The position numbers were made by a program, and so were the translations under genes. A stretch of 63,555 nucleotides of DNA, counting the filler, from Lenisia limosa (taxonomy: Eukaryota > Protista > Breviatea): assembly GCA_001655205.1 (NCBI GenBank). It is 12 parts of 12 records of this genome, joined end to end, with 100 filler letters (N's around TTAATTAATTAA, not from the genome) between each part and the next. Parts side by side here need not be neighbours in the genome. Positions count along the whole stretch, not along the records: positions 1 to 8,481 come from LPNZ01004141.1; positions 8,582 to 10,928 come from LPNZ01003475.1; positions 11,029 to 13,156 come from LPNZ01005530.1; positions 13,257 to 22,663 come from LPNZ01003278.1; positions 22,764 to 32,408 come from LPNZ01009819.1; positions 32,509 to 40,776 come from LPNZ01003246.1; positions 40,877 to 42,412 come from LPNZ01002527.1; positions 42,513 to 49,680 come from LPNZ01009327.1; 4 more parts are not named here. One strand, given 5' to 3'. Below the pieces are notes generated by a model. The model made no database searches, had not been told where the DNA came from, and saw nothing but the letters and a program-made list of their open reading frames with translations. This document shows, piece by piece, positions 3,101 to 63,381 of this stretch (the stretch's first letter is position 1; the number at the start of each line of letters is the position of its first letter).

Positions 3101-6100
3101 CGCTTTCGTTGGGGTGGAAGCCAGCTTCACCTGTCTGGTTAGCTGGGGCATACATTACTGGGGAGGGGGGTTGGAAAATGTATGAAACAAAGTGTCCAAA
3201 ATCAACTCTGTTGGCTGACAACACACAAGGGTTGATAATAACAAAACAAACACAGCCCAGGCCAGTCGCTTCCGAAGCCCCGGGGTATGTTAGGGGATAG
3301 ACAACATATAACTGGGTGTACAATTAATGGAAAATAATACCAAGGACTAATGCCAATTGTAATGAAATGATTGTGTACACATTTGAGTATGTACTCTATG
3401 TGGGTATGTGGGTCTTTATTACTGATTTTAGCTCAAAAACAACCCTAATGGGTCTGGCTAAACACCACCACTGACACTTACCTGGGGGATTGGGAGCGTA
3501 TGTTGGTGAGATGCGGCGTGGGGGTGAGGATGGAGTGGGGTCATAGTGCGGCGGCGAGTGGGAGGCTTCGGGCCCGGCGTGACCTGTAGGGTGACCAGTG
3601 GATCAATGGGGCCAAATTCACCCAATCATTTGCCTTATACACAGCTTTCTATGTGCCTCCCCCATTGATACTCCCCTTGTCATAGTACCCAAGAAATGGG
3701 AATTATATTTTATCGTATCCCCATGTACAGTGACCGGGATAAGTCTTGACCGATATTCCTTGGGAATTCAGAGCAAATCAGTCAAGACTTATCCCAGTCA
3801 CGGTATTATTTCGTATAATACCCAGATTATATTTAATAACATACGTCGATGGAAACTGGAAGATGCCCATTTCATATCCTCAGCAGCTGCAGCTCTCTCA
3901 AACTCCTCGTCCAATGGCGTACCAGGGGGGTGTCTACGGGGTAATGGGGAGGGGGATATGAGATTATTAGACGCAGTTTAAAGAAGTTACCCCCCAGCAT
4001 TACGTTTCTATGTAGCTCCCNNNNNNNNNNNNNNNNNNNNNNNNNNNNNNNNNNCATGATATCAGATTCAGCCTCGTATTCTCCTTCAATTTCTTCATAC
4101 TGTGCGACTTCTTCCTCTTCATATTCTACAATCTCTTCTCCAGAATCAGCAATTTCCTCTTCATATTGTTTTTCTTCCACGTAGTTGTCCTGTCCTTCAT
4201 AAGCTTCTTCCTCTTCATATACTTGTCCATAAACTACTTCCTCACCATATACTGCCTTTTCATCTTCTTCTCTATACGCTTCTTCCTCATAAACCTCTTC
4301 CTCTTCATATTTCTCTCTTCCATCATCATCATCAAAAGCGTCAATCTCATCATAAGCTTCATAACCACCCTCCTCTTGGCTCGGAGTCTTCTCCAACCCC
4401 TCGTCAGCATTTTCATTGAAGTCCACAACCTCATCCGACTCAAAACTCCCGTCTACGCCATGATCAAGATCGTCCAGAGCCCCGCTTGCGGATAGGGATT
4501 GGTATGACGATGACAACCGGTGCTTCTCAGCCGCGATTTCTTCGATCTCCAGCACGGCACTACTTCGCTGTTTCCGAGCCGAGGTTGGGGCTTTTTGGTC
4601 GATGACAACGCGTGGGGGGGACTAGATGTGTAAATATGCGATCAAAAGGGTTTCGAAATGACGGAATTTCGTGACAAGTTCAAGAGCAATAGTGACATGT
4701 ATATATGATATCCATGGTCTTTTCAAGGGTACGTCAAATAAGAAAATTCCTAATATGGCACCGTCAAAAAGACTGAAAATCCATACCAAATATTGATAGT
4801 GGCATTGTCTGTTTACAAGACATTTCGTTTTGGGAAGAAAACCCGTGAAACACCAGTCTTTACTTTTCATACTATATGTATGCAACCATAAGCCCCAATC
4901 AGAACTTAAAGTCGCTTTTTTAAAAAACCCTAACTAAATGCCAGAAACAAACTCTTGATCATATACCGATATTACCAAAGTGAAGCCCACCCCAGGATCT
5001 TCAACCGTAAGTCCTCCCATCGCCTCATCGAGAGATACGATCTTGATGGAAGAGCTTAGACTGGCTCTTTCTTCAGGCTCCTGTAATCGTCATTTGGAGC
5101 AAGGAGTTTTGTTAGTGTCGAATTTCTCCGTTCACATCATCATGATTTTAGGAGATGATGACAAACAATCATATCAATTCCCCAATGGCCAAAACTTGAT
5201 AGAACATATCGCAATCTGACATATTCTTAGTATCATTTTCTGAATAGGAAGAATATGATAACTAAATAATGGGACGAATGCCCTACATTTTGGGCTGCTC
5301 TTTGGAACGACTGCGCAAGAGCCGCATCTTCAAGTGGGTACTCCTATGACAATTAATACTAATCCATTGCAATTATTTACAGCAAAGCTATGAGTGGCTA
5401 AAAATTGCAAGGAGACCAGGTAAGATATGTTTTCTTTTATTTATTGTGATCTCTTATAAGCGTAATGTGGACGGATTCGGGAAACAACCTTGCTTTATTT
5501 CGCATCTCAATATTATGAAGAGGGTTCTTACAATTGTATTTGGGCTGGAGATCGGAATGCTACTCGAGCCCTCGACCGCTTCATCCTATAAACGGAAAAT
5601 AAGAAAAGTAGTGTGCCATTAAGCGGACGCAGTATTTAAAGAACAGTGTCGGTTATATGTTCGTTATTCAAAGTTAAACCCTTAGTAGGGTTAGGTGGTA
5701 CAAATATTCGTTATTATAACTGAACTGGAGAGCTATGGACTCCTCTTAGTAAGGTGTTTCGAGTTTCTTGCGTATCACAATCGGATCATCATTCCCCTCC
5801 ATCCTTACTACAATTCCTAAGAAGTAATTTATCTTTTTAAATCCTCCATTTCCCAAAACAAAACTTAAACATCCCAGACCCACATTGAACAATTTGCGCT
5901 GGGTGTGTCTTGAAGGAGTCCGTGACTGCCTCGGTTCTTGCTGCAGCCCGGGTTCTGCAGAGGCGGGGGTGACGCCCTAGTATGTTAAAGTGGCTCGGTT
6001 GAAGGCCAAAGAAAACTTGACTGATTTAGACTTAGTCTCTGTAAAACAAATTATTACCCACAGTTGAAGGTGGAGGAGCAGCTATCTCGCGTATCTTCTT

Positions 6101-6370
6101 AGCTGAGACCTTCCGCTTAACAAGGCGTGAAGGGGTTGTGTCAGGCTGAAATATAAGGGGGGTTAAGTAAAAATATTACATAGTAGCTCTGATATGCTAC
6201 ATGTAGTATTTTATGATATATTCCTTCTAGAATTGGCGGCGGGGGAGGGGTATTTGTTTAGTGGTAGCTTGGCCCCCGAATAGAGTCATATTGAGGTTTG
6301 GATGCTGAGTCTCTCATACCTGGGTGGATGGCGCGTAGACGGCTCTGCGGGGGAGTCGTGATTGATCCAT
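170..6370 (-). CDS. Multi-exon hypothetical low-complexity/coiled-coil protein (partial; may extend to ~8100)
   Basis: Series of open minus-strand exons bounded by AG/GT, e.g. ~305-365 DRKKEQEETRRRDELIALQFND, 704-1035 Ser/Arg/Asp-rich, 2041-2155, 3057-3157, ~4992-5080 EPEERASLSSSIKIVSLDEAMGG, ~6062-6150 PDTTPSRLVKRKVSAKKIRE. No recognisable domain. Confidence 0.6.
455..549. mobile_element. MITE family A copy (diverged)
   Basis: GGCTTCCCTGCGGTC...GACCGTAGGGAAGCCC inverted ends with a TCGATA-rich core. Confidence 0.75.
1934..2011. mobile_element. MITE family B (Tc1-like) copy
   Basis: TA|CACTGAC..GATAAGTCTTGACCGAT...GGTCAAGACCTATCCCGAACACTG|TA. Confidence 0.82.
2866..2957. mobile_element. MITE family A copy
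   Basis: GGGATTCACTTCGTG...CGGAGTGAAGCC. Confidence 0.75.
3158..3281 (-). repeat. Intronic repeat family C, ends at the splice acceptor
   Basis: GAAGCGACTGGCCTGGGC..TCAACCCTTGTGTGTTGTCAGCCAACAGAGTTGATTTTGG..TTTCATACATTTTCCAACCCCCTCCCCAG, then an exon. Confidence 0.85.
3728..3803. mobile_element. MITE family B (Tc1-like) copy
   Basis: TA|CAGTGACCGGGATAAGTCTTGACCGAT...GTCAAGACTTATCCCAGTCACGG|TA. Confidence 0.88.
4055..4621 (-). CDS. Large Glu/Tyr-rich acidic exon of the same gene
   Basis: Open frame RVVIDQKAPTSARKQRSSAVLEIEE...YEEEEVYEEEAY after a tag acceptor at ~4622; runs into an N gap. Confidence 0.75.
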
Positions 6371-8356
6371 CTATTCAGTCAGATTAGGAAAATAATATCG
6401 TGAGCACTCAGACTGCATGCATAGTAGAGACATACAACTCTCCGCAGTTTAGGGATTGAACTCTGGTGCTTCGTTTATTGATCGAATGTGGTGACATTCA
6501 TAGGAATAAAAACACAATATCCACACTGATTCCTCATTATTAGGCGTACTTATATATCTTTCTCTATTCATAGCCCACAGCATACTTTATGTACATGTAG
6601 TACATTTCTTGTATATTTTTGGGAATCAGATAGACGGAAGCAATGAATTCACATAAGGTTGTTTTAAAGTGTGATCTTTATGGCTTTTCTGTGTTCCCTG
6701 TTTGTTTCTCTTTCTTATTTTTCAAAAGCTATAACTCACATTATTTGTTGAATACTTGAGCATAGGGATATGCCTCCTAGTTCATTGCATATCCAACAGA
6801 GGACACAAACTCGTTTTAAAGTTCATATTAGAAGAAAAATCAACAAAATCCCCCGCTAACTGTAAGATGCTAGCTGAGGAGGTCCGAATGAAACCAGAAG
6901 GCCCTAAGATCTAACAAAGGAATCCCTACTTATCCATATTTCTGTACTTTAATGATTATAAAACACGTGTTTCTCTAGTTTTGCGCACTAAAGAGGCCTG
7001 GAAGCAGCGAAAAATAAAAAACACTTATTCACGGTCGCGCAAGACCCTGTCTGTTTGTGTTTGATTCCCATGTGATTCCCCTTGCTTCCTCTTATGTTCA
7101 TAAGAGATTAAATAAGAAAGTTAAGAAGAAAGGAAATCGCAAAGTCCCCAATTGAAGAAAACTTGGTGGATTTGGGGAGGAGGGCCACTGGCACTATGGA
7201 GTCAGCGAAGCCTGAGTCCGTAAAGCTTCGTCCGGATACTTATGGCGACTTCTGTGGGTTCTAGGATCCGTTTTGGGCTGCTAACACTGTGATGTGATGA
7301 AATTAAGCCTTTTTTGCATTCATATTTTATTAATATTTTTGTATAATTATTATTATTTGTTTTTACGTATACTTGGCTTGGGATACATATTTTGCTATGC
7401 ATGGTGCTTTACTCCTTTTTAATTACATGTGTGTACAAAGTGGCGTTGTGCTGGTGCAATATTGTGACATTCCAAGTTTGAGCAACAGACAAGGAAATGA
7501 AATTACGTTAGCTTTCTTCATACAATGCCAATTTTACACCCCCAGACTACGTCCTGCAAGTTTTCGAGGTCAACGGCAGCGGAAATAGTGAGGCGTCTTA
7601 CGTGTGGTTCGAAGGCTCTGACCTTGCCGTCTTGAAGAAGTGGGAGGGTATTGTGTTGATGCAACAGCAATATAACTGGTGTATATGACACAACAATCAG
7701 ATCCTAATGGACATGGAACAAAAAAGCATATTACAGCAATCAGATCCTAATGGGTATGGAACAGCATTACAAAATCATCCCAACTCCCCCCATAGTATTA
7801 AAACTAACCAATAACCCCGCACAAACTAACTACCCACAATATTAAATATCCAAACTAACTAGTTTTCTAAAGCCCCACAATATCCAAGCTAATTAATATG
7901 ATATACCAGATCAATATCCAAACCTAACCAAGCAGTGGGGAAGCCCGTTTCCTGGAGCTAAAACTCGAGGATTGGGCGCCCCCCAGGGACCCGGACATAG
8001 ACAAGTGGGTCGCAGTGCTCTACTGCCGTCACCGGATGTCGACCGTATTTGCCAAGGGTTGGGAGGGGTTGAAATATGGGGGTGGGATTGGACAAGAGAT
8101 GTGTTGTCTGACTNNNNNNNNNNNNNNNNNNNNNNNNNNNNNNNNNNNNNNNNNNNNNNNNNGGGAGGGGGGGAGTTAACGATATCATTCATTTTCAAAT
8201 AACAGGGGGGATCGAGATTGAATGATAATAAATATTTTGTTCTGGGGTGTTTGCATGGAATCTATTCATCAAAGGAGGATTATTCGGTTCGTGATTAGTA
8301 CCTTTGCTCCAATATTCATCATCGAAATTTCCTTCGTTTTACGTACGCTGGAGTGA

Positions 8357-8481
8357 TGGGATGCGGTGCTGCAGAAGCGATTGGCCTGGGCTTTGTTTCT
8401 TGTGTTGTTAGCAACCCTCGTGTGTTGTCAGCCAGCAGATTTGATTTGGGCATTTTTGTCAGCCAGCAGAGTTGATTTGGG
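8357..8481 (+). repeat. Repeat family C copy (preceded by family D; host strand unknown)
   Basis: TGGGATGCGGTGCTGCAGAAGCGATTGGCCTGGGC... to the scaffold end. Confidence 0.85.
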
Positions 8482-8525
8482 NNNNNNNNNNNNNNNNNNN
8501 NNNNNNNNNNNNNNNNNNNNNNNNN

Positions 8526-8537: not shown

Positions 8538-8581
8538 NNNNNNNNNNNNNNNNNNNNNNNNNNNNNNNNNNNNNNNNNNNN

Positions 8582-10811
8582 TCAACCTCTGCGATGTTGA
8601 CGACTTCCAAGGAGTGCTTGAATTGGACCACTACCTCAGTTTGGCCAGATCAGAGATCCAGATCTCAATCCGTCTCAACGAAATCAGCTCCATCCACAGC
8701 CTCTTGCTGGAAGTAAGGAGGGGGGTACATTTACTATTATATGATGACTAGGGCTTCCCTCCTATCCCAAAAAAGACTCCCGATAAATCCTCGATAAATA
8801 TCGATGTTTTGATGGTTTTTTTCGGACCGAAGGGAATCCCTAATGATGAGGCTCACTTAACATTATACGATGATGAAGGATGGGGCTTTTCTTTCGTTAA
8901 ACTTCCAAACGATGGGATGCGGTGCTGCAGAAGTGATTGGCCTTTGTTTGTTTTGTTGTTGTTATCAACCCCTTGTGTTGTCGTTGATTTTTGTTTCATA
9001 AAGTTCCCAATTTTACCCCCCTCACGCTGTAGTTCCAGAGCAAGCTATGCAAGAACAAGGACCGCCTTTCACACATTCTCGAAGACCTTGGGCCTGCAGT
9101 GGGGGGTTAGACATAGGGAGCCCAGTGTGGAGATTATTGTTTTTTTTTTTTTTTTTNNNNNNNNNNNNNNNNNNNNNNNNNNNNNNNNNNNNNNNNNNNN
9201 NNNNNNNNNNNNNNNNNNNNNNNNNATGAGAAAAAAAGAAAAAAAAAAATGCTATGATTACAAAAAATCTCATAAAATCCTCTCACAATTTAGTCTGAGA
9301 AGATTCCTATGGCCGAGAACAAGAGCGTTGTCCTTGACCTTGCCTCAAGATGGGCCCAGAGCCTCAAGGTGGGAGAGGTGGCGGCAAAGTGTGTTGAAAG
9401 TGTATATTAGGGCTTCCCGACAGTCTCAAATAGACTTTTTCTCGATAAATTCTCGATAAATATCTATATTTTACCGGTCTTTTTCGGACTTTTGTTAAGC
9501 CCTGTGTAAATAATGAGCGGTTATCTATCATATTCCATCAACAATAATGATGAAACATTTCTGTCAGTAATAATGGTACATTTCTGCTAACATTTCTGCC
9601 AACATTTCCATCATAATGAACGCAGACCTCTTCTGCCGGCAACCAATCCACCTACTCTACCATCCTGCAGAACGTGGTATCCGTCGCCGTATCCGTGGGG
9701 GGAAGTTCACTTTTTTGTTTTTTGAACCAGTAGTTTTTTAAAAAAGAAGCTTAAAGCTGTGTTTTTAGAACAGTTTTTTGAAAATAGAGGGGTCATCTAC
9801 GAGTTCAAAAACAAGTGGACCTCATATTTAGACAAGCGCCATTTACCCCTTTTACCCCCTGTCGAGATCACCCTCTCTCCCAAAAAATAATAATCAATAG
9901 AGATGACCGATTGCAAGAAAACGAGTCAGCTCTTGACCATATATCCTCTTACTGTGCCCCCCCTCCCATTTTTCTTCTTACTGTGCAGTGCCAATCCGCC
10001 CCCCTCTTCCACTCGTGTATGGCTGAAGACGTCATAAAGACTCTCGAGGAGGTATGCTTGTTGGGTGATATTGTTTTTTTTTCAAAAATGGGTTAAGCCT
10101 ATTGTAGAGGAGGGAAGAATGACGTGTGATAGTGTTGTTTGAAAAATAAGTAAAGAGTACTGTAGTGGTACTTAATGCGGAACTTAGTGCGGTACTTAAG
10201 GAGGGAAGGCTTCCTGTTGATTGGTGATTGATGTTTCTTGTACAATAGTAGAAATGACTTGGTAGTTCCCTCGTTTTGCTCTCTCTCTTTCTCTCTCTCT
10301 CTCCCACCCCCCATCATCACCATCAATCTCTTTTTACATGCGGTGCTACAGAAGCGACTAGCCTGGTCTTTGTTTGCTTTGTTGATTCCCTCGTGTGTTG
10401 TCATCCAACAGTTTGTTTTGTTACATAAATTTTCCTATTTCACTCCCCCCCCTCCCCCCAGCAAGCCCAAAGCAACTTGCCGAAGGTTGCAACACCAGCC
10501 ACCAAGGCCCTTCAACTCATTGGCATGTACAGTGACGAAGATAGCGTCGCGCTCAAGGCTGATAACTACGCTACTCTCCGAAAGGACGTGGAATTGGTGC
10601 GTGGAGAAACTAAACTGAACTGAACTGTTTTTTTTTTATCAACCCGTGTGTTGTCAGCCAACAGAGTTTGGGCTTTTTTGTTTCATAATCTTCCCAATTT
10701 TACTCCCCCCCCCCCTAGGAGCTAAAGAGTCTGGACGGGCTTCGTGACCGTCTAGCGGAGGAACTGGCGTCACTGAAGAGCGTTTACAGCGACATTGATG
10801 ACCACCATAAG
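8582..10811 (+). CDS. IQGAP/Gap1(Sar1)-related RasGAP, C-terminal (RasGAP_C-like) region, partial
   Basis: Spliced exons LCDVDDFQGVLELDHYLSLARSEIQISIRLNEISSIHSLLLE / FQSKLCKNKDRLSHILEDLGPA / SEKIPMAENKSVVLDLASRW / ...DNYATLRKD / ELKSLDGLRDRLAEELASLKSVYSDIDDHHK match, in order, motifs I recognise from the IQGAP-related GAP family. Confidence 0.85.
8751..8840. mobile_element. MITE family A copy, TA-flanked, intronic
   Basis: TA|GGGCTTCCCT...AGGGAATCCC|TA. Confidence 0.8.
8913..9032 (+). repeat. Intronic repeat family C, ends at the acceptor
   Basis: TGGGATGCGGTGCTGCAGAAG...TTCCCAATTTTACCCCCCTCACGCTGTAG, then a RasGAP exon. Confidence 0.88.
9410..9502. mobile_element. MITE family A copy, intronic
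   Basis: TA|GGGCTTCCCG...TTAAGCCC with the family core. Confidence 0.75.
10338..10461 (+). repeat. Intronic repeat family C, ends at the acceptor
   Basis: ATGCGGTGCTACAGAAGCGACTAGCC...TTTTCACTCCCCCCCCTCCCCCCAG, then an exon. Confidence 0.88.
10588..10718 (+). repeat. Family C copy that is a complete 131 nt intron
   Basis: GTGGAATTGGTGCGTGGAGAA...TCAACCCGTGTGTTGTCAGCCAACAGAGTTTGGGC..TTCCCAATTTTACTCCCCCCCCCCCTAG; removal joins RKD|ELK in frame. Confidence 0.8.
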
Positions 10812-10832
10812 GTGGGCCGTCCATCATATTCA

Positions 10833-10928
10833 GGGCTTCACTTCGTTTCGAAAAAAGACGGCATTTCTCAATAAATCCTCGAAAACTATCGATATTTTAA
10901 CGGGGTTTTTCGAACCGAAGTGAAGCCC
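10833..10928. mobile_element. MITE family A copy
   Basis: GGGCTTCACTTCGTTTCGAAAAA...TTTTTCGAACCGAAGTGAAGCCC. Confidence 0.9.
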
Positions 10929-11297: not shown

Positions 11298-11302
<5 letters not shown>

Positions 11303-11333: not shown

Positions 11334-12823
11334 TAAAACAANNNNNNNNNNNNNNNNNNNNNNNNNNNNNNNNNNNNNNNNNNNNNNNNNNNNNNNNNNN
11401 NNNNNNNNNNNNNNNNNNNNNNNNNNNNNNNNNNNNNNNNNNNNNNNNNNNNNNNNNNNNNNNNNTATTTGCTTACAACTGCACACAGCTTTCTGCCTCT
11501 CCAGCGCACACAGTATAATAACAAGAAAATATACAAGCCTTCGCTTTAATGATGTAATATGATTTTTGTTTCATCTCTGCATGTAATTCCGCAGATTAAG
11601 ACCAGATTGATGAAAGAGTTGACTCATAATCTGATAGTGATGATTTTGAATACTGTGTGACTCATGACAATATTCAAAATCATCAATATCATCATTTTCA
11701 GGATACATCTCTGAATATAAAGAGCTTCTATTTGCGAAGACAAATCCCCATTAAGCCTATTTTATCCGTTATAATATTGCTCACATTTTGGCAGAAGCCA
11801 GGAAGACGACCGTGAGAAGCACAACAAGACACAGCATAATGCTAAGTGTACTGGGTTCAAGCAAAGCGGATAATTACGAGAAGTGCGATTTCCACAGTCA
11901 CACAGTATATCTAGTTAACACTTAACACCCTACTTAGGCTTTAGGCGATTGAGATTTTTTTTTTTCGTCTGAAGGTTAATATGTAACAAATGTAACTTAG
12001 TGTCAATTTTCAACAGATTCCCCAATTCCCCAATCTCCAATTTCTCTTTACCTTTACCACTAGAAGTCAAATAAACAAGCTTACCGAGGCTTGTTCGTCT
12101 TTCTTCCAAGATCAGTGGCAACTATTCAGACTACGACGACTATAACCAATGTAATTGGGTCGTTGGGAAGAGAGGCTTACTGCTATATATACATATATGT
12201 ACTTTCAGTATTCTTCTCCTTGCTTACCACAGTCATTTTGACAAGGTGTTTCTAAGTTATCATATTTCACTTTGTGGGTCCTTCTCTGCGTCCTCCTTTC
12301 CCATGGTTTTGTGAGTGAGAGATTGGAAGCCTCGTTGTTGCTTCATCAATGGCAAATCGCATCTTACTTGCTTCATCAATGGCAAATCTCATCTTGCCCT
12401 AGTCTAATCTCTCATTCTTTCAGACAGTGTATTTTCTTAAATCACATTTATCATTTCACCCAGACTGAGCTTGCTTGTTTGTAGTATTCAACCCTCGTGT
12501 GGTTGTTGATAACAGAGTTTATTTTGGGCTTTTTTTTTGTTCTGCCAGCTACTATAATCCGATATCTCTGAGAAGAAATACAACCTTGTTTTATTTATCA
12601 TCGCTAATTATAAGTTCACAGACGGAAGGGACCCGGTTATTTCTGGCCCCTTAGACTACTCCTACTCAAGCCCTTCTGTTAAACAAAGATCCAACATGTA
12701 AGCGTGGTGTGTGTGAGTGTTTTTTTTTTTTTTTTTNNNNNNNNNNNNNNNNNNNNNNNNNNNNNNNNNNNNNNNNNNNNNNNNNNNNNNNNNNNNNNNN
12801 NNNNNNNNNNNNNNNNNNNNNNN

Positions 12824-12928
12824 TGCAGAAGCGACTGGTCTGGGCGTTGTTTGTTTTGCCCTTGTGTGTTGTCAACTTGATTTTTTTTTTGTTTCATAAA
12901 TTGTCTTTGTTTACTCCCCACTGTCAGT
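12824..12928 (+). repeat. Repeat family C copy
   Basis: TGCAGAAGCGACTGGTCTGGGC...TTTACTCCCCACTGTCAG; a partial copy lies at 12486-12548. Confidence 0.8.
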
Positions 12929-13365: not shown

Positions 13366-16300
13366 AGGGCTACTTTAAAGTGGACCTCTCTTGCAGTAAA
13401 TGTGACAGCAGCGCCAACTACCTTCTTCCCATTTGCATTTTTGCGGTTGTGGCCTTCCTGGTCTTCCTCTTTTTTAACAGGTGGGAGATTTGAATGTATT
13501 TCAATATTCAAACGAATTTTCTGGTTAAAATTCTCAAAAAGCAAAGCAAATCACGTGTCCTGAATTTGATTATTAAACTCTTTGCCACAGCTACCGTCCA
13601 AGCCAAATTGAAACCTTCGGAGCTGTTCGTCTCTTCTTCAACTTCCTCCAGGTCACAGCACTGTATTCTTCGTTCCTTGTGGGTTAAGGGCTACTTTTTG
13701 GAGTAAGATTTTGTACATAAGATATTTATAATTACCTGCCATTTCATAATAGTAAACATATTTGCTGATAGTTTACTGGAACATGAACTTTGAATACAGA
13801 TAGAAAGAGTAGCAGGGGGTTTCTACTGACGAGCTTGAGGCAAAATAATACAGATATTACCACAGTGATCTCATATATAACCGACAGTATAATATGATTG
13901 ACTATAATTCATGTATGTTATACAAGTAACCAATATTCAAAATGAGTCAATTTCTGATGATAGACCCTCAATCTGTCCTTCATAAGTTTAACTGCCTTCA
14001 GGTGAATTGGCCAGAAAGGGTGAAAGACGCCTTCCTTATCCTCAGTATTGTGAATGCCAATGGTGAGGGAGACTGGCAAAATATCATGTTTGTTTCAACA
14101 CCAAAAAACGTGGCGTTGGGGCCTTTGTTTGTAGAAAATGATGTTCCTATAGACATTGTTGACTTTTTCTCAGTTTTTGAAACTTTTTGAGTTTGTTTTA
14201 TGTCTCAAATATGTATAGTCAAAGCTCCGGACATCATTCAAAATTCCCGGACACATCAAAACTCCTAGACAGCTTGAGTTTTTCCCTACAAAATCACCAT
14301 AAACCACCCAAAAACCCTATTTCCCTTTTGTTTTCGAAAGTAATCTCAATCTTAATTAAAGCATGAAACCCCAATTTAACATATTGTCGGGTCAAAACCA
14401 AATTAAGTCCCTGAGCTCTCTGTTAATGGTCCAAATACTGTCAAAAACAAGCAAAAACCGTTATAAAAGGCCACATTCAAGGAATAAATGGCAACTATCC
14501 GGGAAAGTTTACCCCTTGTAGACAGTGCTATTTTGAGCAATTTTCTCTCAAAATTCACCATTACATAGCCAAAGTAAAGTGGAACCCGGAACCAAATACT
14601 CCGAGGGGTGCAAATTTTTGTTTCTTAACACTTAAAGAGGGTAAGATTCAGAAAAAAATCCTGTGAAAAGGCAAAAGGGGGACCCCCGGGAGACCAAATT
14701 CACGGATTTTTGACGTTTGCTCAAAATTGAAAAAAAAAGTTAGGGAACATTTGGAGGACCATTTCTCTTTGTATCTGTCGAAACAGATTTCCAAAAAACA
14801 CTAGCAATGGCCTATACAAGGCATTAACTTCAAGCTGTCCGGAGTTTTAATGTGTCCGGGAATTTTGAATGGTGTCCGGAGCTTTGAGGACCCACATATA
14901 TGTGTATGCCACAACCCCCCACAACCCCACTTACCCACTTTTTTTTACTTCGCTGACCGATGTAGTCGAACTAGCCGCACCAGAATGCGCTCTAAATAGG
15001 AATTTTACTTACTATGAGAAGGTAGGGATGGAACAGCATCACAAGAGGAAGACATAGGTCACATCTCCGATGTCGTCGATACTAATCCTCTTATCCCCTT
15101 ACGTCGACCGTATTCTCATGAAGGGAAATGTTTTTTTTACCGGCTTGTATATTTTATTTAGAAAAAACATGGGGTTAGCGGCCTCCTACAAGCACGTTTC
15201 TTACTTTACAGTTCTTCCTGAAGCTTCTATTTCCCGTGGCGTCTGTGGTGCTGGTTTTCCTTGTATTTCTGTTGACCAATCTGCTGACATGGGTGTTGAT
15301 AATGTCTGGTAAAACTCCCGCAAGGTTGGTACAAGCTCTTACACGTGATGCATAACGTTATACTATTATTTTGTAAAGGATCCTTTATTATTCTTTTTTA
15401 CTATTTCTGTGTGATTTATTTTAGTTGCTACATTCTCATTAGAAAGCCTTCATAAATGAATGAATCTCACAAAAAAAATCATATCATCTGATCCAAAAAA
15501 GCTCGCCAATATTTCCCTAATATTTCCTTCGCAAATACATTTGCCCTCACACTTGGCAGTGCGCCACCCAAGCCCTTGAAGCCCCTAAAACATCTCTTGT
15601 GGAGAATATGTACACCATTTTCCAAGGATGACAGGAAGCATCTCAATTACGCCTTGCTCAGGACAATTGCTGTGGGATGAGGGATGGGGACTTTAATTAA
15701 AAAAAAATGTTGGTGGCTGTGTCTACCTCCACAATTATTATATGTGTTAGTTATGTTTATGTCGCATCCTGGTATGGTTGTGGTGACATTTTGCTGATAC
15801 CACCTCCAGAATATTAACATTCTCTTCTACTTGCCGCTGGCACGCACTGTTCTCGAGTACTTCGACTGCACTTTGGTAGGCGAAGGGGGGGGGCAACTCT
15901 TTCGTTAGAGCACACTCAACTTTCAACTAAGCAAACTCTCTTTCTTACAACATGTATACATTTACAAATGATAAACAATCACACTACTCTCCCCCTGTCT
16001 TAATTCTCCCTCACGTTTCCTCCATCCAACTCCCCTCTTACTCCCAAGCAACCTGACGGTAGTTTGGTGCTCGATGCTCTTCCTGATATCACGTGCTACG
16101 AAGGAAGCTACAACATCTATTTGCCTGTAGCTATTGTAGGTGGAGGAATCAGCTTTCACAGCAATATATGATATCCAATAATCCCTAACATTGCCATCCT
16201 TATATTACCCATAATACATCATTATTATCTCGCTTATCAACCTCTCTAAAATGGCCAAGCAGAACACGTTTGCTATTAATTGTCTTCACTTGGTTCCGAA

Positions 16301-41136: not shown

Positions 41137-41232
41137 GGGCTTCACTTCGGTTCGAAAAAAAACTGAATTTCTCGATAAATCTTCGAAAACTATCGATATT
41201 TATCGGGGTTTTCAGAAACCGAAGTGAAGCCC
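41137..41232. mobile_element. MITE family A copy
   Basis: TA|GGGCTTCACTTCGGTTCGAAAA...AAACCGAAGTGAAGCCC. Confidence 0.9.
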
Positions 41233-42308: not shown

Positions 42309-42512
42309 CTGGAGATTTAGAGGCAGAGTAATCTAGAGATTAAATGGGGGGGCAATTTGTTGTACTATTTGGGTTTAAATAGGGTGAAAGGTGTGAGTGT
42401 GTTGGCGGCTGGNNNNNNNNNNNNNNNNNNNNNNNNNNNNNNNNNNNNNNNNNNNNTTAATTAATTAANNNNNNNNNNNNNNNNNNNNNNNNNNNNNNNN
42501 NNNNNNNNNNNN

Positions 42513-43717: not shown

Positions 43718-44417
43718 TGCGTCACAAGCTGCGTGGTGTTACTATTTCAAAAGTAATATGTCAGAAACGCGAAANNNNNNNNNNNNNNNNNNNNNNNNNN
43801 NNNNNNNNNNNNNNNNNNNNNNNNNNNNNNNNNNNNNNNNNNNNNNNNNNNNNNNNNNNNNNNNNNNNNNNNNNNNNNNNNNNNNNNNNNAACCCATAAC
43901 CCCCCAAAAACACCCAAAAAAACCCAGAAACACCCAAAAAAAAAACTCGAAAACAACTGAAAACACCTGAAAACACCTGAAAACAAAATATCCTCAGTGG
44001 CTACTTGTAATCTAGTGTAATGCTGATGTCTTCCTATTTTAGTTTCAAGTAATAATAGCAAATCCCGTATCAGTTAAAAAAAAATGGAAAAGTGATTCTG
44101 GAATCCCGCAGAATAGACAGCCGAAAACACCCCTCAAATAAAACTGAAGAACACCCTAAACCCCTATAAATAAAACCTCAAAAACAAACTTCAAGTACCC
44201 CGAAAAAACCAAAAAAAAAATCACAACCCCGGGNNNNNNNNNNNNNNNNNNNNNNNNNNNNNNNNNNNNNNNNNNNNNNNNNNNNNNNNNNNNNNNNNNN
44301 NNNNNNNNNNNNNNNNNNNNNNNNNNNNNNNNNNNNNNNNNNNNNNNNNNNNNNNNNNNNNNNNNNNNNNNNNNNNNNNNNNNNNNNNNNNNNNNNNNNN
44401 NNNNNNNNNNNNNNNNT

Positions 44418-44488
44418 CTGCTGGCTAGAAATACACGAGGGTTGAGAACAACAAAGCAAAGCCCAGGCTTGCAACACCGCATCCCATA
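44418..44488 (-). repeat. Repeat family C, 5' half (runs into a gap)
   Basis: TGGGATGCGGTGTTGCAAGCCTGGGCTTTGC..TCAACCCTCGTGT. Confidence 0.8.
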
Positions 44489-44664
44489 ACTCGGTAAAAT
44501 GGAATGAAAAACAAAACAAAGCCCAGGAAATCTTGAAGAATATTGATAGTATATACTATACTACATCATGATAGTATATAATTACATATGATATATGAAC
44601 AGTACATATCTAGATATGTATGTAATTATTCTATTCGAAAAAGGCGGTTTGAAGTAAACATTAG

Positions 44665-49911: not shown

Positions 49912-51191
49912 GACCAGTATTAGCCATCCTCATCCGAAGGGCTCCGGAGTCCGTATCGCCCATTCTCGGCCAGGTGGTGTCCGCCGTCGTATCCTGGCTC
50001 GAGGTGGAAGGCGGTTTTTATTTTTTTTTGGATAAGAGAAATATTATATTATACTAACTTTACGCACATATTCTTCATCAAAATGTCCTTCGTTTTACTC
50101 CACCCCCCCACCAGAACCAGGAAGCAGGCTTACATTGCCAACTGAGCATGTTGATGGTCATCGCACAGCTCGTTCTGGCGAACACCAACCAAACTATCGA
50201 TGTGGGGGGGAGTGATGGTAGTTGTATTGGTTATGCAAGAAGTGATGATGATGGTGGTGGTGGTGATGATGAGGATGATGATTGTGATAATTATGACGAT
50301 GATAATGACGATGATAGAAGTGATGATGGTTTCCATTTCTTCCATCCCTTTTCACTACCAACACAAGAGATTCTACTGATAAAACTTTGATACTTTTCGG
50401 GAATTGTATCGAGCATTTAGTTTCTTTTAACCAGGGCTTCACTTCGGTTCGAAAAAGACTCGCAAAATAGGATTTATCGAGAAATTCAGTCTTTTTTTAC
50501 CGAAGAGAAACCCTTCTTGTAACCAAAGCGAAGCCCTACTAACACGACAGTTTCTCGCGTCACAAACTACCCCACAAGGCAAGAATGTTCTCACTGTCGT
50601 TCTCACGTGAGTTTGCCTACTAGTTTTAAAAAAATTAAGAACATATTTGGGCTTCCCTGTGTACGAAAAAGACCGGTGAAATATCGATATTTTCGAAGAT
50701 TTATCGAGTATTTATGTCCTTTGTTTTACCCCCTCCCCCAGTTCATGGAAAAGGCACCATCAATCTTCCATCCGCCTCTATATCAAGAAACTCCTGTAAG
50801 TGGATGGAGGGGTCTAAAGGAAGCTTACTCTTTTTGACACCATTCTTTAAGCATAATCGACTTTTATGGAAAATCTGAAGCATTAATTTTATTCAGGTTT
50901 TATTAATCTTTTTTTTTTGTCATGAATTTTCCCTACAAAGTTGATTTTGGGCTTTTTGTTCATTACTGTTCCAATTTTGTCTAGTTTTAGCGTTGGTTGC
51001 TTTATTATTATTATTGTTATTATTATTATTATTTTTATTTTTATTTTTAGTTTCAGATTATTCGGTTCATGATTGGCACCTTTACGCCGATATTCTTCAT
51101 CGAAATCCCTTCGTTTTACCCCCTTCCCCCCAGAACATCAGCACTCTCCACACTCCTCCTCTCCGGGCACCCTAGTGTTTTGGCGTGTCAG
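49912..51191 (+). CDS. IPO9: Importin-9 (HEAT-repeat karyopherin), internal fragment
   Basis: In-phase exons GPVLAILIRRAPESVSPILGQVVSAVVSWLE / NQEAGLHCQLSMLMVIAQLVLANTNQTID / FLASQTTPQGKNVLTVVLT / SWKRHHQSSIRLYIKKL / TSALSTLLLSGHPSVLACQ follow importin-9 C-terminal motif order. Confidence 0.75.
50057..50114 (+). repeat. Intronic repeat family D, ends at the acceptor
   Basis: ACTTTACGCACATATTCTTCATCAAAATGTCCTTCGTTTTACTCCACCCCCCCACCAG, then an importin-9 exon. Confidence 0.8.
50434..50536. mobile_element. MITE family A copy in an importin-9 intron
   Basis: GGGCTTCACTTCGGTTCGAAAAAGAC...CAAAGCGAAGCCC|TA; a half copy follows at 50649-50710. Confidence 0.82.
51056..51133 (+). repeat. Intronic repeat family D, ends at the acceptor
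   Basis: GATTATTCGGTTCATGATTGGCACCTTTACGCCGATATTCTTCATCGAAATCCCTTCGTTTTACCCCCTTCCCCCCAG. Other copies at 8278-8342 and 62890-62937. Confidence 0.82.
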
Positions 51192-51584: not shown

Positions 51585-53555
51585 GTGGCGCGGCAACAGG
51601 GTTGAAAATGGGCTGTTGTTGGGGTTGTTGGAAGGTAGACTGGGGGGCCAATGCAGCGGCAACAGCAGCTGAAAAGTGTCATTTGTAAGGATTATGGGTG
51701 GAAAGCAAAAAGAAATACCTAGTCATGTTTGTTTGTATCTTTTGTATACAACAACAAAACAGCGCTGCATACCAAGAGCACCAGGTTGCTGGAGTTGTTG
51801 GTAGAGCTGGGGGAACATTTGCATGAGACCCATGGCTCCTTGGGGCTAAAAGGTAAAGGCGAACTGTACTGTGACCCCACCCCAATACCCTAATGACAAA
51901 ACAAAACGAAACAAAAAGTCCATTCTCACGTTCAGCTGAGGGACAGTAGCGGTGGGCATGGGCATGGTGGGTTGGACAGGCATCTGCATTGGCACAGCTG
52001 CCTGCTGGGAAATGGGTGAACAAAGCTAAAATTGTATCTGAAGAAAATCGTATGATATAAAGACACCATGTTGAATCCTACCGCAGCTGCAGTTTCTTTT
52101 TCTTTGTCAGTGTCAGCAAAACGGACAACAAGGTTCTTTTCAGATCCCTAATGTTGAGGGGTTAAGATGAAGGAAAGTGTGCCTTATCTTAAGCAAAAAC
52201 AACAACAACAAAAAATTATACTATGTACAGTATGCTATCCCAAAAGAATAATGGCCCACGGGAAGACTGGTGGAGCCATTGAGAAGAGCAATGGCGCGCT
52301 CAGCCTCGCCCTTGTGGTCCATGCGCACAAAGCCACATCCTGGGGGGTGAAGGGAAAAGCAAACAACCTGCAAAGGGAAAATTCTTATGCTATATCATAA
52401 AACATGGTTTATGAGGAATGAAGGGAAGCTTTTATATTGCGGGTTTTGGGTCACATATTTCTCAAAATCGTACAAAAAGGAGACGTTTGCCACCCATCAA
52501 CGGCTAATCCATATAACCGTCTTTAAGAAAAGAAGAAAAAAAAAATTGAATTTGACATAGCAAAACAAAAAGTAAATTATAATAAAACAATAAGGGAGAG
52601 ATAGAATATATCTTTTCAATCCGCGCTTAAACACTAAAAGATACAGGTCAAATGAACAGTGAAAAATCGCACTTGGTACAATCATGATAAGAATAATAGA
52701 AAACGAATTTTTAGAATAATAAAACAAACAAAAACAAGCCTGCTTGCTTCAACTGTTTTTTTTTTGAAAAAAAAAAAACCCCCAGAGGGTGAGAAACTGA
52801 GGTAAATGAGACAAAGAGCAAACCATTCAAACAAAACAATCAAACAAAAACAATACTAAAGCGAACCCTTAGAAGTTTGATCAGGGCGTTTCATAAGAAA
52901 AACGTCACGCACGGTACCAGCTTGGGAAAAGAGATTGGAAATCTGAAAGCAAAGGTAAAGGCAAGGAACACAATAAGGGGGAAGGGGGGCTTGTGAGATA
53001 AACCTCTAATCAAATAAAGAGAAAACTAATCAGAGAAAAATAATAATAATAATAATGAATTGAATTAAAGAAGAAAAAAAATCATCAGTTGCCATGATAC
53101 CTCTTCAGCAGAGCAACTGGGAGGAGCAAGGGCGAAGAAGATTTTGAAGGAATCAGGTCCTTCCTTGTTAGCCCAACGAACTTCGCAGGGGCGTGTCATC
53201 TGGAAAGAAGCTCAGGAAAACAGCCACAAATGTCATGAGATTGCTTGTTGAGAGAGATGTTCCCCGTTAATAACCCACCAACCGAAGGGAATGTGAATTT
53301 GCCGTCCATAGCTTCTAAGCACGCGTCAGCAGAGGCTCTTCTTTTGAACAGACAAAAACCACATCCTAAAAAAATGATTGTAAGCTCATGTTTTGGTCAA
53401 TTTACCCTTAGAAACTTGTGTAGCAGAATCTTTGAGGATAATGACTTCAGCAACTTCACCAAAAGGTTCAAGAACTGCCTTCATATCTTCTTCCAAGAAA
53501 GATCTCGGAATTCCTCTCACAAATAGTTTGATACCAGTATGTCCTAAACCGTTTG
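51585..53555 (-). CDS. CELF/Bruno-like RNA-binding protein (RRM1, RRM2, Gln/Pro-rich linker), partial
   Basis: IKLFVRGIPRSFLEEDMKAVLEPFGEVAEVIILKDSATQVSKG / MTRPCEVRWA..KIFF / GCGFVRMDHKGEAERAIALLNGSTSLP / NLVVRFADTDKEK are diagnostic CELF RRM motifs. Confidence 0.85.
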
Positions 53556-53889
53556 AGCTTAGGAAGTACAGAATTGAAAATGGGGAAAAGAAAAGCAGTC
53601 CCCTAATTACCTTCCATTTTGACTCACAGGATATGAAAACAAAATACTTGAAGATATTGAAAACAACCCACCGAAACCAGAAAAAAATTTTGCTCTTCGG
53701 TTGGTTGGGTTGGGGACTACATAAAAATTATGCCACGTTGACGCCTTCCTCTTTCCGTTTTCCCGTCTCCCCCCTCCCCNNNNNNNNNNNNNNNNNNNNN
53801 NNNNNNNNNNNNNNNNNNNNNNNTTAATTAATTAANNNNNNNNNNNNNNNNNNNNNNNNNNNNNNNNNNNNNNNNNNNNCCCCCCCCCC

Positions 53890-56800
53890 CCACCCGGGTC
53901 AACGACCCTGTCGGTTCACGTAATTCGGCTTGAGTGACTCTCTCATCCGCATCCTCCTGGATCAAGGCCCGCTCATGTGCAAGACGCACAGCCATTTCTT
54001 GCGCCAATTCCAGGCGGATGGCGTCCCTGTGCGTGTGAAAATGGTGTGTGGGAACGGTGTGATGATGTACAGTGACCGCGATACGTGACTAAAGATAGAG
54101 CTGAATATTCGTGCCATGTGAGAATGGTGCATTTGAGAATTAGAGCTTCACTTCCGGTTCCAGAAGAAGACGGAATTTTCGATAAATCCTCGATAAATAT
54201 TGATAATTAAAAGGTCTTTTGGAACAGAAAGTGAAGCTCAAGTGAGAAAGGAAACAAAACAAAACAAAACAAAACAAAACAAAACAAAAACAAAACAAAA
54301 ACAAAACAAAAACAAAAAAGCTCTACAATACGATATAATATCATTAAACGTAAAATAGTGATGTCACATCCTACCTGGAGCAATCAACATCCTCAAGAAC
54401 TTCCTTCGTGATTGTTTCAACCAATTCTCGTCGCAGCGTCTCTGTAATTTCGACCCGTAGTTCTGCTGAAAGTTGTTCTTCAATTTCCTGCGGGGTGGGG
54501 ATAAGGGCATTGGAGAGCATAGGAGTGAAGAAATACAGAATTACTATAAAATGTATACTCGCCTCCCCCCAAACAATAAGCAAATAGAAAACATCCCCCC
54601 CCCCACCTGTCGGATNNNNNNNNNNNNNNNNNNNNNNNNNNNNNNNNNNNNNNNNNNNNNNNNNNNNNNNNNNNNNNNNNNNNNNNNNNNNNNNNNNNNN
54701 NNNNNNNNNNNNNNNNNNNNNNNNNNNNNNNNNNNNNNNNNNNNNNNNNNNNNNNNNNNNNNNNNNNNNNNNNNNNNNNNNNNAGTGAAAGTGAATGTAA
54801 CATAAGAATAAACAAAACGACAAAAGAATAAGCTGTTTAATAAAGAAACAGACGAAGTAGTATCATACCGATGCAGTCCAAACCATCAATGCCCTTGAAT
54901 ACAGCTACAATTTCGAAGACTTTCCATCAATGTAGAAGTACGTCTTATGAAATAGCGTTCAAATTGGTTCTGTCTTTTCCAGAAGAACAAAAAGGTTTGT
55001 TAAAACGCCTTTTACCTTGAGTTTCATAATTTATTTTTATTGTGTTTGGAGTTTTGGAGTTTTAGAGTTTGGAGTTTTGGAGTTTAGACTTTTTGAATGT
55101 GAGCTGCTAACCTCAGATAAGAGGTTCTTTAAGGCATTTGACTCTCAGCTCAGCAGCTAGAGTGCACTCTTCACCCCCGGATACAGAAGGAAAACTGTAC
55201 GGGTTGCTTTCTTTTGCTTATTTAAGTAGACTGTGCACAAATCCTCCCGTTTCAGATTAATTCCAAAGAACGGCTCCACCGACCTCGGGCCTCAGCAAAA
55301 CCAGAACAATATCATGAAGCTCAAACCTGGGAAAGATGCTGAGCCGAATCGTGAGTAAACGGCTTTCGACATCCTGGAATGCCACAACCTCATGGACGGG
55401 AAGCACGGTTTCTCCTAGACATTTCAAAGGCCTTCGACACCACCCTGAAGGAGGGCATCATGAGGGCCTCGACAGGCTAAATCCCCCCAAAAAGGTCCGA
55501 AGCCTCCTGGAAACCTCCTTGTCGGGAAATATAGCAAGGATTAAGACACTGCCGACAACCTCTCAAGGGATCACTTGTGTTTGGCTATAGGGCCTTTAAA
55601 AGAACCCATAGACAAAAAGGTAGGCCATTCGTCTTTTTTTTTTTTTTGCATTTTATTTGTCGAAGTAACCCCCACTTTTCGCGTCATGACCGCATCTAAG
55701 CGTATCAACTCAAGTAATGGATCTGTTGACTGAATCCGGGGAGACCTCAACAACAGCGCTACTGAAATTGCTCGTCGAGTTGAGAGAGACAGAGTACAAA
55801 AGGATGCATCCCCCTGAATTTGATGACCTAGAGGCCCTTGCACTCTTATCATCTTGTGCGATTGGTGTCGACGTTGAGAAGGCGTATGGTTTAATATACT
55901 ATTCTATATGAGATGTGTATTAATAACATAGCTCTCCGAGGACTGCCACAAGATGGTTCGCCATTGATACTACCCTGAACGTCTTAAGCTCGTGGATGAA
56001 GGTAAGGTACCCTTTGAATAGTAGTTCTCTCTTACCTTATAGGATTTCTTAAACCCACATTCCAAAGTTCTCAGAAATTAATTTCACTGAAATCAACAAA
56101 GTATCCCGCATATTCAGCGCCTTGCCATGGATGGAATCTGCATGCAGGAATGTTGATTTGCAACCTCGTTTCGATATTGTTTCCAAAAAAGACAGTATTC
56201 AAATTGGTTCATTGAACGCCTAGTATATGCACAACTCTCTACATGGGGAATATCGGCCTGTGCGGTCCTCTCACGGCTCTGTTTCGACGTGTACAAGGCT
56301 TCTATATTCTTTGTTTATTGGCCATACTTTTGTCACCACATTGTGGCAAAACGACACCAACAAAGCTTCGATGTCGGTCACGGTCTAAAAATTGTTGACT
56401 CATTACCTCTGGACCCCAAATGTTTGCTCCCAATTAAACCTGCAAAATAGTATAATAAGGTTTGGAGTCGTACAGATTCAAAAATCGTTTCTTAGTGTTG
56501 AAGAAGGTACCAGGTGATTTTCCTGAGGAAGTTGGTGCTCTTCTGAGCAGTGTTATTTTTGGACTTAGTTGATCTGGTTCAATATTTATTCTCGAAGGCA
56601 GCACTCCACAATGCCAAGGCCCTCTCGGAGTTTGTCTCCAGTCACTCCGCTATTTCGTGCCACGCGAGCCAGAATGAGCTATTTTCCTCCATGGAGATGG
56701 TGGGGGGGGGGNNNNNNNNNNNNNNNNNNNNNNNNNNNNNNNNNNNNNNNNNNNNNNNNNNNNNNNNNNNNNNNNNNGGCTCGCCTAATTTCTCATTCAG

Positions 56801-61311: not shown

Positions 61312-61377
61312 CATTAGAACTCTGGAAAAACAAATAATAAATACATAGGGATACCAGAAACAGATTGCCATACTTCC
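61312..61377 (+). repeat. Intronic repeat family E
   Basis: CATTAGAACTCTGGAAAAACAAATAATAAATACATAGGGATACCAGAAACAGATTGCCATACTTCC. Confidence 0.75.
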
Positions 61378-61438
61378 GCGCCCACACACTTGGCACCCTT
61401 TATTAGAACTGCATTTTTTTTTTTTTCACATTTCCAAG

Positions 61439-63381
61439 GAATCTCGTCAAAAACAGGATGCTGAATCCAACCCCCTCCCCTCAGTTCCCTCCGCCCCTGC
61501 CTGCAAACCCCCNNNNNNNNNNNNNNNNNNNNNNNNNNNNNNNNNNNNNNNNNNNNNNNNNNNNNNNNATTAAATAGCAACATCACTTACTACCACCATG
61601 AGACACTCCCTCCCCCCTTGCGCTTTATTGTCTCAAAGCCGCTGTTTGGGTGTATTATGTGTTCTTTGATCTTGAAATTTATTGTCTCAGACATTAATCG
61701 ATTTATTTCTTTTTTTTCTTTTTTTTCTTTTTTTTTTTTGTTTGTTTTCCTTTTTAACCCCTCTCCCCAGTCCTAGAAAACAGTGACAACACATCTGCAG
61801 CCAGCTCCCCGAAGGCGGCCGAGGTTTGTTGGTTTTCTTGATTGGGTGAATTATCAAAATCTCTTGTAAACGTAATGATATGGATTCCATTACAGTTACA
61901 TGGTTTCCTAAGTAGCGGCAGTTTAGTTTGTTAAACTTTCATGAGTGGTAAATCCTAAAAGTAAGAACGCTAAAAAATACCGCCTTGAAGATAGTATGTA
62001 CAGAAACCGCCAGTTCTTTCTTTATGAACTAATAGAAGCCAACAAAGCAGCACTACAACCGCGAAGAGTAGTTGTTCTATGTAGGGGAGACGACCTTTCT
62101 CTGCTTCATTCCTGATCGGAACCATTGTCTCAACCATATTGGTGCAGAAGGTGGCATTTCTTGAAGGAATGGGAGTACAGAGAGGCATCGTGCAATATCC
62201 AATGAAACATAAGACGTTGGCGTTTTCCCGATTTCTCTCATGAAATATTCGACTTTTTGTTTGTAACTTTTTCATCCGTCGAATAGAACTGTCTTTTCCC
62301 AACCACTCAGCTCTGGTCCTCACAGAGATACACGACTGGGCCAGAGTTGGCCTTTGGTATACAATAATAACAATGTTACAATGGAGGGCTTACTCCAGTA
62401 AGCTTACTGGAGGGCTTTTTTGGAGACCTGCGAGTTTTCAATTCTAACATTAAGCTCGAGGAGTCGAGTTTACAACTTTTGTCTTTCGCTCTCAAAACGA
62501 AAGTTTACAATCACCGCCACCTTCCAAAACAACGCCATCGAAATGATCCTCTGAAATGGATATACTGATCATAGAAATGTAATTAAGTCCGCAAAAACGG
62601 GGGCTTTTATCAACACGAACTTCTGCAACAGTCTCATTATCACTGACTCCCGATTTCTCGCATGAAATATTTGTTCATTACTCTAGTTGAATAAATAGGT
62701 GCAAAATATTTGAAATTTCCACTACCTCAAGTTGGTAGGCCGGTGATAACTTGAGCCAACAGAGTTGATTTCGGCTCTTTTTGTGTTTTCTGTCAACAGA
62801 GTTGATTTGGGCTTTGTCTTCATAAATTTTCCAATCATCTCCTCCNNNNNNNNNNNNNNNNNNNNNNNNNNNNNNNNNNNNNNNNNNGACACCTTTACGC
62901 CAATATTCTTCGCCAAAATAAATATCCTTCGTTTCACTCGACTGGCCGCCTTGGCTTTTGTTTTGCTGTTTTCAACCCTGGTGTGCTGTGCAAATGTTTA
63001 GCTCACAAAGTTGATTATAGGTATTTTATATTTTTTTTGTGTGTTTCATAAGATTCACGCCCCTCCCCCAGACCACCAACAGTTTCACTGAGTCACCCTG
63101 TCCAAAGCCTTCAATCCCCTTGCCAAATATCGCCAGAAGCGTCTCAGTTGAAAAATGTTGGTTATTAGGACTCACTTCGATTCGATAAACTATAGAAATT
63201 TATCTAGCTATCATAATTTATCACTAAATTTCCCACCAAAATTCCTTCTTTTTGCTGTTCTTCCCATTTTCCCTATTTATTGTCCCTTCTCCCACTTCAA
63301 TTTCATTCCATGCAGTCAAACCGGTCGCATCAGATAAGGCCGTCATTGCTGATGACCCCTTGGCTGGTCTATGTTCGTGGT
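61439..63381 (+). CDS. Exons of an unidentified Pro/Ser-rich protein on the last scaffold
   Basis: AG/GT-bounded open exons ESRQKQDAESNPLPSVPSAP, VLENSDNTSAASSPKAAE, TTNSFTESPCPKPSIPLPN (63071), VKPVASDKAVIADDPLAGLCS. Confidence 0.4.
62941..63070 (+). repeat. Diverged family C copy ending at the acceptor
   Basis: ACTGGCC..GCTTTTG..TCAACCCTGGTGTG..AAAGTTGATT..GTTTCATAAGATTCACGCCCCTCCCCAG, then an exon; another copy at 62755-62845. Confidence 0.7.

Follow-up and report, generated by a model that had tools for sequence, protein, structure and literature searches.

The window, a 63,555-nucleotide (nt) stretch of the Lenisia limosa genome assembled from 12 short scaffolds with spacers between them (59,206 bases other than N), is rich in introns and carries a short dispersed repeat, here called family C, which lies in sense orientation beside intron acceptors. 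A profile built from 14 copies (nine from the window and five from G001, a second contig set), whose model stops at TTTYAC ahead of a C-run, returned 17 window matches at E<=0.05, which collapse to 14 loci spread over 8 of the 12 scaffolds, together with 8 matches in G001 contigs; a reversed-sequence control gave no match at E<=0.5. These numbers reproduce the count in a preliminary description of the stretch (about 14 copies on 8 scaffolds). The length of 120-130 nt given there has to be revised, the unit being about 140 nt, from TAYGCTG to TTTYAC, with its start about 10 nt upstream of TGGGATG (seen at 8344). Median pairwise identity among copies is 0.81 (0.66-0.91; 88 pairs).

Comparison data came from two public runs of one study, both used as contigs: a DNA-like run (X1) and a poly-A RNA run (X2). 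X1 contains 0.92 of the words of the window and is possibly its source, so it is not treated as independent support, and summed contig depth is not taken as copy number. Scans with repeat patterns gave 0 matches in metagenome and viral contigs and 3 in G001, a GTDB bacterial bin of the metagenome-assembled genome type. Stray contigs of the same eukaryote were seen inside this bin; of its 58 contigs C39 to C96, 21 (84 kb) were taken as eukaryotic, mainly by low open reading frame cover. L009, the sole G001 contig checked against X1, is assigned to the same organism as the window because it shows no difference from X1 over 226-440, at single-copy depth. The G001 contigs played no part in the original observation and represent out-of-sample material.

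Mapping X1 on one family C copy recovered 5,860 contigs, 1,809 of them leaving into other sequence, which suggests about 900 or more loci at two junctions per copy; from the density of one copy per 4-10 kb, the genome probably holds thousands. The earlier finding of no terminal inverted repeats (TIR) and no clear target-site duplications (TSD) was supported by fold and TSD-permutation tests. Eight folds showed no stable structure or 3' hairpin (z -1.4 to +1.3 against shuffles), and the inverted-repeat likeness in the family, judged by eye, is a gapped match of 5-7 nt. An intron-encoded structured RNA of the small nucleolar type was considered and rejected, there being no Rfam match on the copies and no conserved fold. 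Family C matches no filed short interspersed nuclear element (SINE), miniature inverted-repeat transposable element (MITE) or Helitron.

Splicing of host introns was followed with an X2 contig that aligns as six exon pieces on 8582-10811; a seventh exon (9989-10051), obtained by subtraction, has RNA depth. The seven exons sum to 632 nt, equal to the contig span of 632, and leave one frame open over 210 codons. Each of the six introns is of the GT-AG type, with family C at the end of three and absent from the end of the other three. Intron i1 (8713-9032, + strand, 320 nt), across which the RNA contig joins 8712 to 9033, contains a MITE of family A and the family C copy 8908-9016, with 16 nt from TTTTAC to AG. 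Intron i5 (10052-10461, +, 410 nt), where the contig enters the exon at the 10461 AG, contains copy 10338-10443, its 5' end immediately behind a TTTTAC and its terminal TTTCAC 18 nt from the AG. Intron i6 (10597-10718, +, 122 nt), spanned by the contig, consists almost entirely of family C (10605-10703). All three claimed acceptors open to testing with RNA (9032, 10461 and 10718) are therefore used. The remaining four (3158, 40041, 42549 and 63071) are hand calls, that at 40041 spanning a gap, and the last had been placed at 63070, one base short of the G of its AG. Host introns are short throughout (122-429 nt).

Elsewhere in the window the placement recurs with hand-called exons. The minus-strand copy 3171-3282 (model positions 22-134; nhmmer E 5.7e-33) is followed by a C-rich run and an AG at 3159-3158, the end of host intron 3481-3158 (GT-AG joint, frame open). 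On the plus strand, the internally deleted copy 17060-17135 lies in host intron 16953-17176 (GT-AG joint, open frame), with a second TTTAC/C-rich tract behind it and the AG at 17176, 41 nt on. The minus-strand copy 40053-40132, its 5' side lost to a gap, leads through a C-run to AG 40042-40041. The minus-strand locus 42558-42735, a profile match, combines a 3' fragment (42735-42695) with a 5'-truncated copy (42664-42558); the AG at 42549 lies 9 nt on and closes host intron 42977-42549 (exact GT-AG joint, frame open). The plus-strand locus 62889-63071 comprises a copy of a second family, D (62889-62937), fused to a 5'-truncated family C copy (62939-63058), then a C-run and AG 63070-63071, an acceptor with no known donor. 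Further plus-strand profile matches are 8343-8481, a copy with complete 5' end and internal duplication that is cut by the scaffold end, its host read from exons near 7546-8057 (+); 12463-12535, a fragment whose 5' end lies 3 nt behind TTTCAC and which adjoins no acceptor; 12824-12914, its 5' side lost to a gap, with CCCC, an AG 13 nt on and an acceptor further downstream at 13069; 50933-50977, a 3' fragment inside intron 50796-51133, away from the acceptor; and 62753-62835, two gap-cut 3' fragments. The minus-strand copy 44417-44493, gapped at its 3' side, abuts with its 5' end the TTTTAC of a family C-like fragment.

Position at the 3' splice site is quantified by the signature of a C-run and then YAG no more than 50 nt from the element's 3' end, found at 7 of 10 window matches and 6 of 7 G001 matches, against 5.8% and 4.0% of random positions in the window and G001, respectively. 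The ends of family A MITEs, used as a control, carry it in 4 of 47 cases (Fisher p 3e-7). The count covers matches that reach model position >=120 without a gap, which excludes 8 of 25 with short or gapped 3' ends; five of the G001 copies were in the profile training, yet the model ends before the C-run. Where a C-run is present, YAG follows it by 8 nt or less in 9 of the 14 runs linked to the element versus 65 of 294 others (p 0.001), with two copies contributing two runs each. The description of seven cases in which the TTTTAC/C-tract runs straight into the AG is loose: in the six of them that have the hexamer, 9-18 nt separate it from the AG. Nor is the ending uniform, as had been supposed: the copy at 3158 has no TTTTAC, that at 42549 has no real C-run, and spacers differ in sequence. 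Across 12 copies the distance from terminal hexamer to AG is 9-41 nt, with spacers ranging from a pure C-run to unrelated sequence, and a few copies (12463, 50933 and L016:3168) do not lie at an acceptor at all.

Sense orientation, claimed for 11 copies, is seen at every one of the 20 loci whose host can be read (3 from RNA, 17 from hand-called exons), which correspond to about 12 independent genes (p 2e-4); two G001 loci, L013:1449 and L016:3168, were dropped as unreadable. The copies at 8357, 12486 and 12824, listed earlier without a host strand, are probably sense too, as they lie among hand-called plus-strand exons. Several hand-called donor coordinates are off by at least one base and the strand of the repeat was known beforehand, which makes these calls weaker evidence. 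C-run acceptors, often with an A just ahead of the run, occur also without family C, so this acceptor grammar is partly the host's. In a crude count, sites with GT and a G-run numbered 93 versus 49 with a C-run and AG, and beside donors no antisense copy appeared. Because G-runs behind GT, which read as C-runs on the opposite strand, are at least as common, a preference for C-runs alone is insufficient to account for the orientation. Assembly gaps often fall at C or G runs and could conceal some antisense copies. As a general observation, many window introns begin with GT and a G-run and end with a C-run and AG, and many gaps lie at these runs. Intron 8713-9032 has, close to its donor, a G-rich word of 10 nt whose exact reverse complement lies close to its acceptor; complementary intron ends or TIRs as a general feature were judged unsupported, the pattern having been seen by eye in this intron only.

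The 5' ends behave differently from the fixed 3' ends. Twelve of 25 matches begin at model positions 31-100, whereas 2-3 fall short at the 3' side, and contig depth is 676,556 over the 3' core versus 341,885 over the 5' core. The 5' part is present in 11 of 25 matches and lies inside the intron wherever the intron is known. TTTYAC occurs within 6 nt upstream of the 5' junction in 7 of 15 readable copies versus 0.8% of the background. In X1, the consensus of 192 contigs on the 5' side has TACGCTG preceded by 22 pyrimidines in 23 positions ending in CTCC (agreement 0.49), a flank unlike an exon end that may partly consist of tandem family members. On the 3' side, 173 contigs give a consensus ending in a C-run (agreement 0.59); this 30-letter consensus ends within the run and so reaches no AG genome-wide. 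Past 10715, 114 contigs give a weak hint of an AG beyond family C (agreement 0.36). The 5' end at L038:1182 was discarded as a chance match.

Family D shows the same arrangement. It is about 85 nt long, lies in sense and ends in TTTYAC, followed by a C-run and AG or by a family C copy. Six matches are known: the plus-strand copies 8266-8342 (ending TTTTAC and followed head-to-tail by a family C copy), 50054-50098 (followed by a C-run and the AG at 50114 that ends hand-called intron 50004-50114), 51047-51119 (C-run and AG at 51133) and 62889-62937 described above, with L030:407-324 and L039:3031-3075. Three end in a C-run and AG, two are fused to family C and one is cut by a contig end. Families C and D have only the terminal hexamer in common; a longer shared 3' tail was tried and rejected (p 0.09-0.72; 5 copies). 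By eye, the acceptor at 50741 also looks D-like at its end. A possible family E is seen at L009:4341-4463, where it ends CCAGTTTTAC, C-run and AG, and at 61337-61385 in the window, where the 5' part alone recurs.

Whether family C is an introner was tested at the two intron boundaries. To count as an introner, a repeat must show likeness as far as both splice sites, secondary insertions being filtered out (PMC9860276, 2022; PMC12130899, 2025; Gozashti et al.). Family C resembles them as a short repeat, with 3' splicing signals, in introns of unrelated genes, with likeness up to the 3' boundary and splicing of all three RNA-tested introns; some introner families likewise have neither TIR nor TSD (PMC9860276, PMC12130899). 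In eight GT-AG host introns (3 by RNA, 5 by hand), likeness over the last 70 nt is 49.4 versus 17.3 for shuffled sequence, and over the first 40 nt it is 13.0 versus 13.1, so similarity does not extend to the 5' boundary. No exon-edge duplication was detected at these eight introns (p 0.14). No AG occurs at the head-to-tail joints 8342, 44494, 62937 and L009:5346, and together with its varying distance elsewhere this indicates that the AG is most likely the host's. The element itself supplies a branch-site-like motif and a T-rich tract. The initial designation as introner-like or acceptor-donating is therefore not upheld; by the both-ends test family C is no member, and it is introner-like only in carrying 3' splicing signals, dependent on a host donor and AG. 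The fallback in the preliminary description, a secondary insert retained near acceptors, fits better as to insertion and less well as to passivity, the placement being too tight and one-sided.

The reading that best joins these observations, with a probability of roughly 0.5, is that family C is a non-autonomous, retroposon-like element that enters the putative branch-site/C-run of putatively pre-existing introns and restores the motif as it does so. It is called retroposon-like because loss of 5' parts beside a constant 3' end marks target-primed reverse transcription (PMC3747384). A partner enzyme would copy the family C RNA from its 3' end into the TTTYAC/C-run target, leaving 5' truncations, and the position of that target on the sense strand of intron ends would fix the orientation. 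The TTTYAC of the element would hold the branch adenosine; placed ahead of the host C-run and AG, the copy's own TTTTAC would let splicing survive and renew the target, which could then receive the next copy and generate C-C and D-C arrays. Intron, donor and AG would all belong to the host.

Several points weigh against such a retroposon. Target-primed insertion often leaves a TSD; the copy-specific value here is 10.8 within copies versus 10.3 permuted (p 0.20), for 13 copies about 20% diverged and with low-complexity targets. The same permutation gives no support to a long TSD at 17060 or to a copy-specific TSD made of TTTYAC. No Pol III head of tRNA, 7SL, 5S or snRNA type was found (ARAGORN, 0 genes; 7 weak Rfam matches, none on a copy), no convincing Pol III boxes were found by eye in family C, and the family has no poly(A) or simple-repeat tail, the C-run aside. 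No mobilising partner was found in the window. A candidate reverse transcriptase (RT) remnant at 55318-55587 (+), noted for likeness to an RT motif of retrotransposons without long terminal repeats (non-LTR), was rejected, Pfam giving no support. Loss of 5' parts is also explicable by later deletion, with selection keeping the 3' part. The TTTYAC motif was chosen after the data had been seen, and in 4 of the 7 cases it is the end of a neighbouring C or D unit. G-TAYGC, a donor-like word, opens both full-length copies. RNA support comes from one contig of one run, X2 has no coverage of the out-of-sample exon L009:280-432, the 17 hand-called host strands were assigned with the repeat's strand already known, and the host exons called at those loci gave no Pfam match. 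Searches of protein, representative, PDB and Pfam sets with the host exon or its protein found no homologue. A RasGAP exon on a different scaffold drew 12 matches, a single one of them named (a fungus, 64%), which does not fix the lineage.

An unlikely alternative is that insertion was random and that selection did the rest, purging antisense and mid-intron copies or letting them decay and keeping sense copies at intron ends as branch site or pyrimidine tract. Selection does shape the orientation of transposable elements (TEs) near exons in mammals (PMC3088655), an identity of 0.81 makes the copies old enough for sorting, short introns place any insert near an end, and a few copies lie away from an acceptor. 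Against this, the same introns tolerate family A MITEs, which are of comparable size and show the signature at no more than the 4 of 47 ends given above, the mammalian zone beside acceptors is depleted of TEs rather than filled (PMC3088655), and neither the 5' junctions behind TTTYAC nor the pyrimidine/CTCC flank of the 192 contigs is explained; selection alone seems insufficient for the placement. Still less likely is a decayed introner, in which each copy was once a whole GT-AG intron whose 5' end later indels have hidden. Intron 10597-10718 is the lone whole-intron candidate, with p 0.017-0.024 for likeness of its start to the element's 5' part within the intron and 0.003 when 10 exon bases are added, and secondary insertions do give false negatives in introner screens (PMC9860276); the G-TAYGC starts would suit such an origin. 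Yet the p of 0.017 is the best of 18 introns and is lost after correction, the eight host introns share no 5' sequence, the 5' part where present is internal to known introns, exon-edge repeats are absent and AG spacing is varied. The proposed GTAYGC donor itself was rejected, since the letter before TACGCTG in the 192-contig consensus is C and not G.

Targeted spread without reverse transcription, by a Helitron-like or site-specific DNA element or by ectopic conversion through TTTYAC/C-run microhomology, is comparably improbable. Lack of TSDs, a constant 3' end with 5' ends that vary, and joints of the head-to-tail kind suit rolling-circle elements as well, Helitron-derived introners are described without TSDs (PMC12130899), and conversion would explain strand and position with no enzyme of its own. 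The folds reported above, with no 3' hairpin, stand against it, and a defined 5' end, as hundreds of contigs show it, is not readily produced by conversion. Helitrons have the termini 5' TC and 3' CTRR, which the ends of family C (TAYGC and TTTYAC) do not resemble. Beyond the retroposon-like reading lies the wider but rather doubtful possibility of a homing class, in which a number of unrelated families (C, D and perhaps E) would recognise the branch-site/C-run of introns already present, enter there on one strand and give the intron a fresh branch site. Much of the genome's intron 3' ends, perhaps including the C-run grammar, would then be the work of parasites, with occasional donor capture giving a whole intron such as 10597-10718.

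Among known systems, SINEs and non-LTR retroposons, including the sequence-specific R2 and Tx1, share with family C the 5' truncation, the fixed 3' end and a strand-fixed preferred target (PMC3747384). Family C differs in having no tRNA, 7SL or 5S head, no TSD and no partner found, and its apparent target is a spliceosomal 3' signal rather than a multicopy RNA gene or a microsatellite. About 5% of classified introner families derive from non-LTR retrotransposons (PMC9860276, PMC12130899). Fungal introner-like elements, with hundreds of copies, decay in sequence and length as family C does, but they are whole introns with a stable predicted structure (PMC3609843), whereas family C mostly forms an internal part and its folds do not surpass those of shuffles. 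The fungal elements reportedly have neither TIR nor TSD. Mammalian intronic TEs show a similar orientation bias near exons, and antisense Alu has cryptic acceptor signals; they are, however, depleted beside acceptors, where family C is concentrated (PMC3088655). Stwintrons, like family C, involve an insert interrupting a splice signal, for instance the branch point (PMC8469720), but that insert is itself a spliced intron, and family C gives no sign of separate excision, most copies having no donor. A narrow search of a partial literature collection turned up no paper on an element with branch sites as its target, which supports novelty weakly.

Mobile elements usually stay away from intron 3' ends, and a family of one orientation that renews the branch motif there would, if the retroposon-like reading is true, represent a new safe haven. 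Intron ends would then turn over without intron gain, and one-ended likeness, which introner screens discard, could mask an active process. Since the genome probably holds thousands of copies and has a second family of like placement, targeting and selection can be tested against each other directly in it, as can the way in which a TE gains the signals needed to become an introner. If the homing-class reading is true, intron 10597-10718 would be a missing step from safe-haven TE to introner.

Acceptor-like ends resembling a decayed family C 3' end were observed at 7508-7545 (+), 35107-35065 (-), 60659-60620 (-) and L009:5848-5909, with p of 0.09 (7508), 0.003 (35107) and 0.007 (60659) at sites picked after a fuzzy search; further intron ends may thus derive from the family. 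Family A consists of palindromic MITEs some 95 nt in length, often TA-flanked, with 24 window loci (for example 10832-10928, 29248-29343 and 41136-41232), occurrences in G001 contigs and the highest contig depth seen. A second palindromic, MITE-like family of about 75 nt lies at 1935-2012, 3730-3805, 24335-24412, 42774-42850 and L009:597-671, and gives rise to the weak matches to Rfam miRNA families at 3725 and 24315. A DDE_1 (pogo/Tc1-mariner-like) transposase fragment at 46736-47248 (+; Pfam E 1.5e-7), apparently intron-bearing, is a candidate mobiliser of the TA-flanked MITEs. A dispersed repeat of about 580 nt (82% identity) links 14214-14790 to L019:3797-4359, and a tandem array with a 22-26 nt unit occupies 49224-49535. 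Pfam matches in the window comprise a bromodomain (31293-31562), an NLE domain (35339-35680), a RasGAP domain (42128-42316) and two RRMs (53199-53727).

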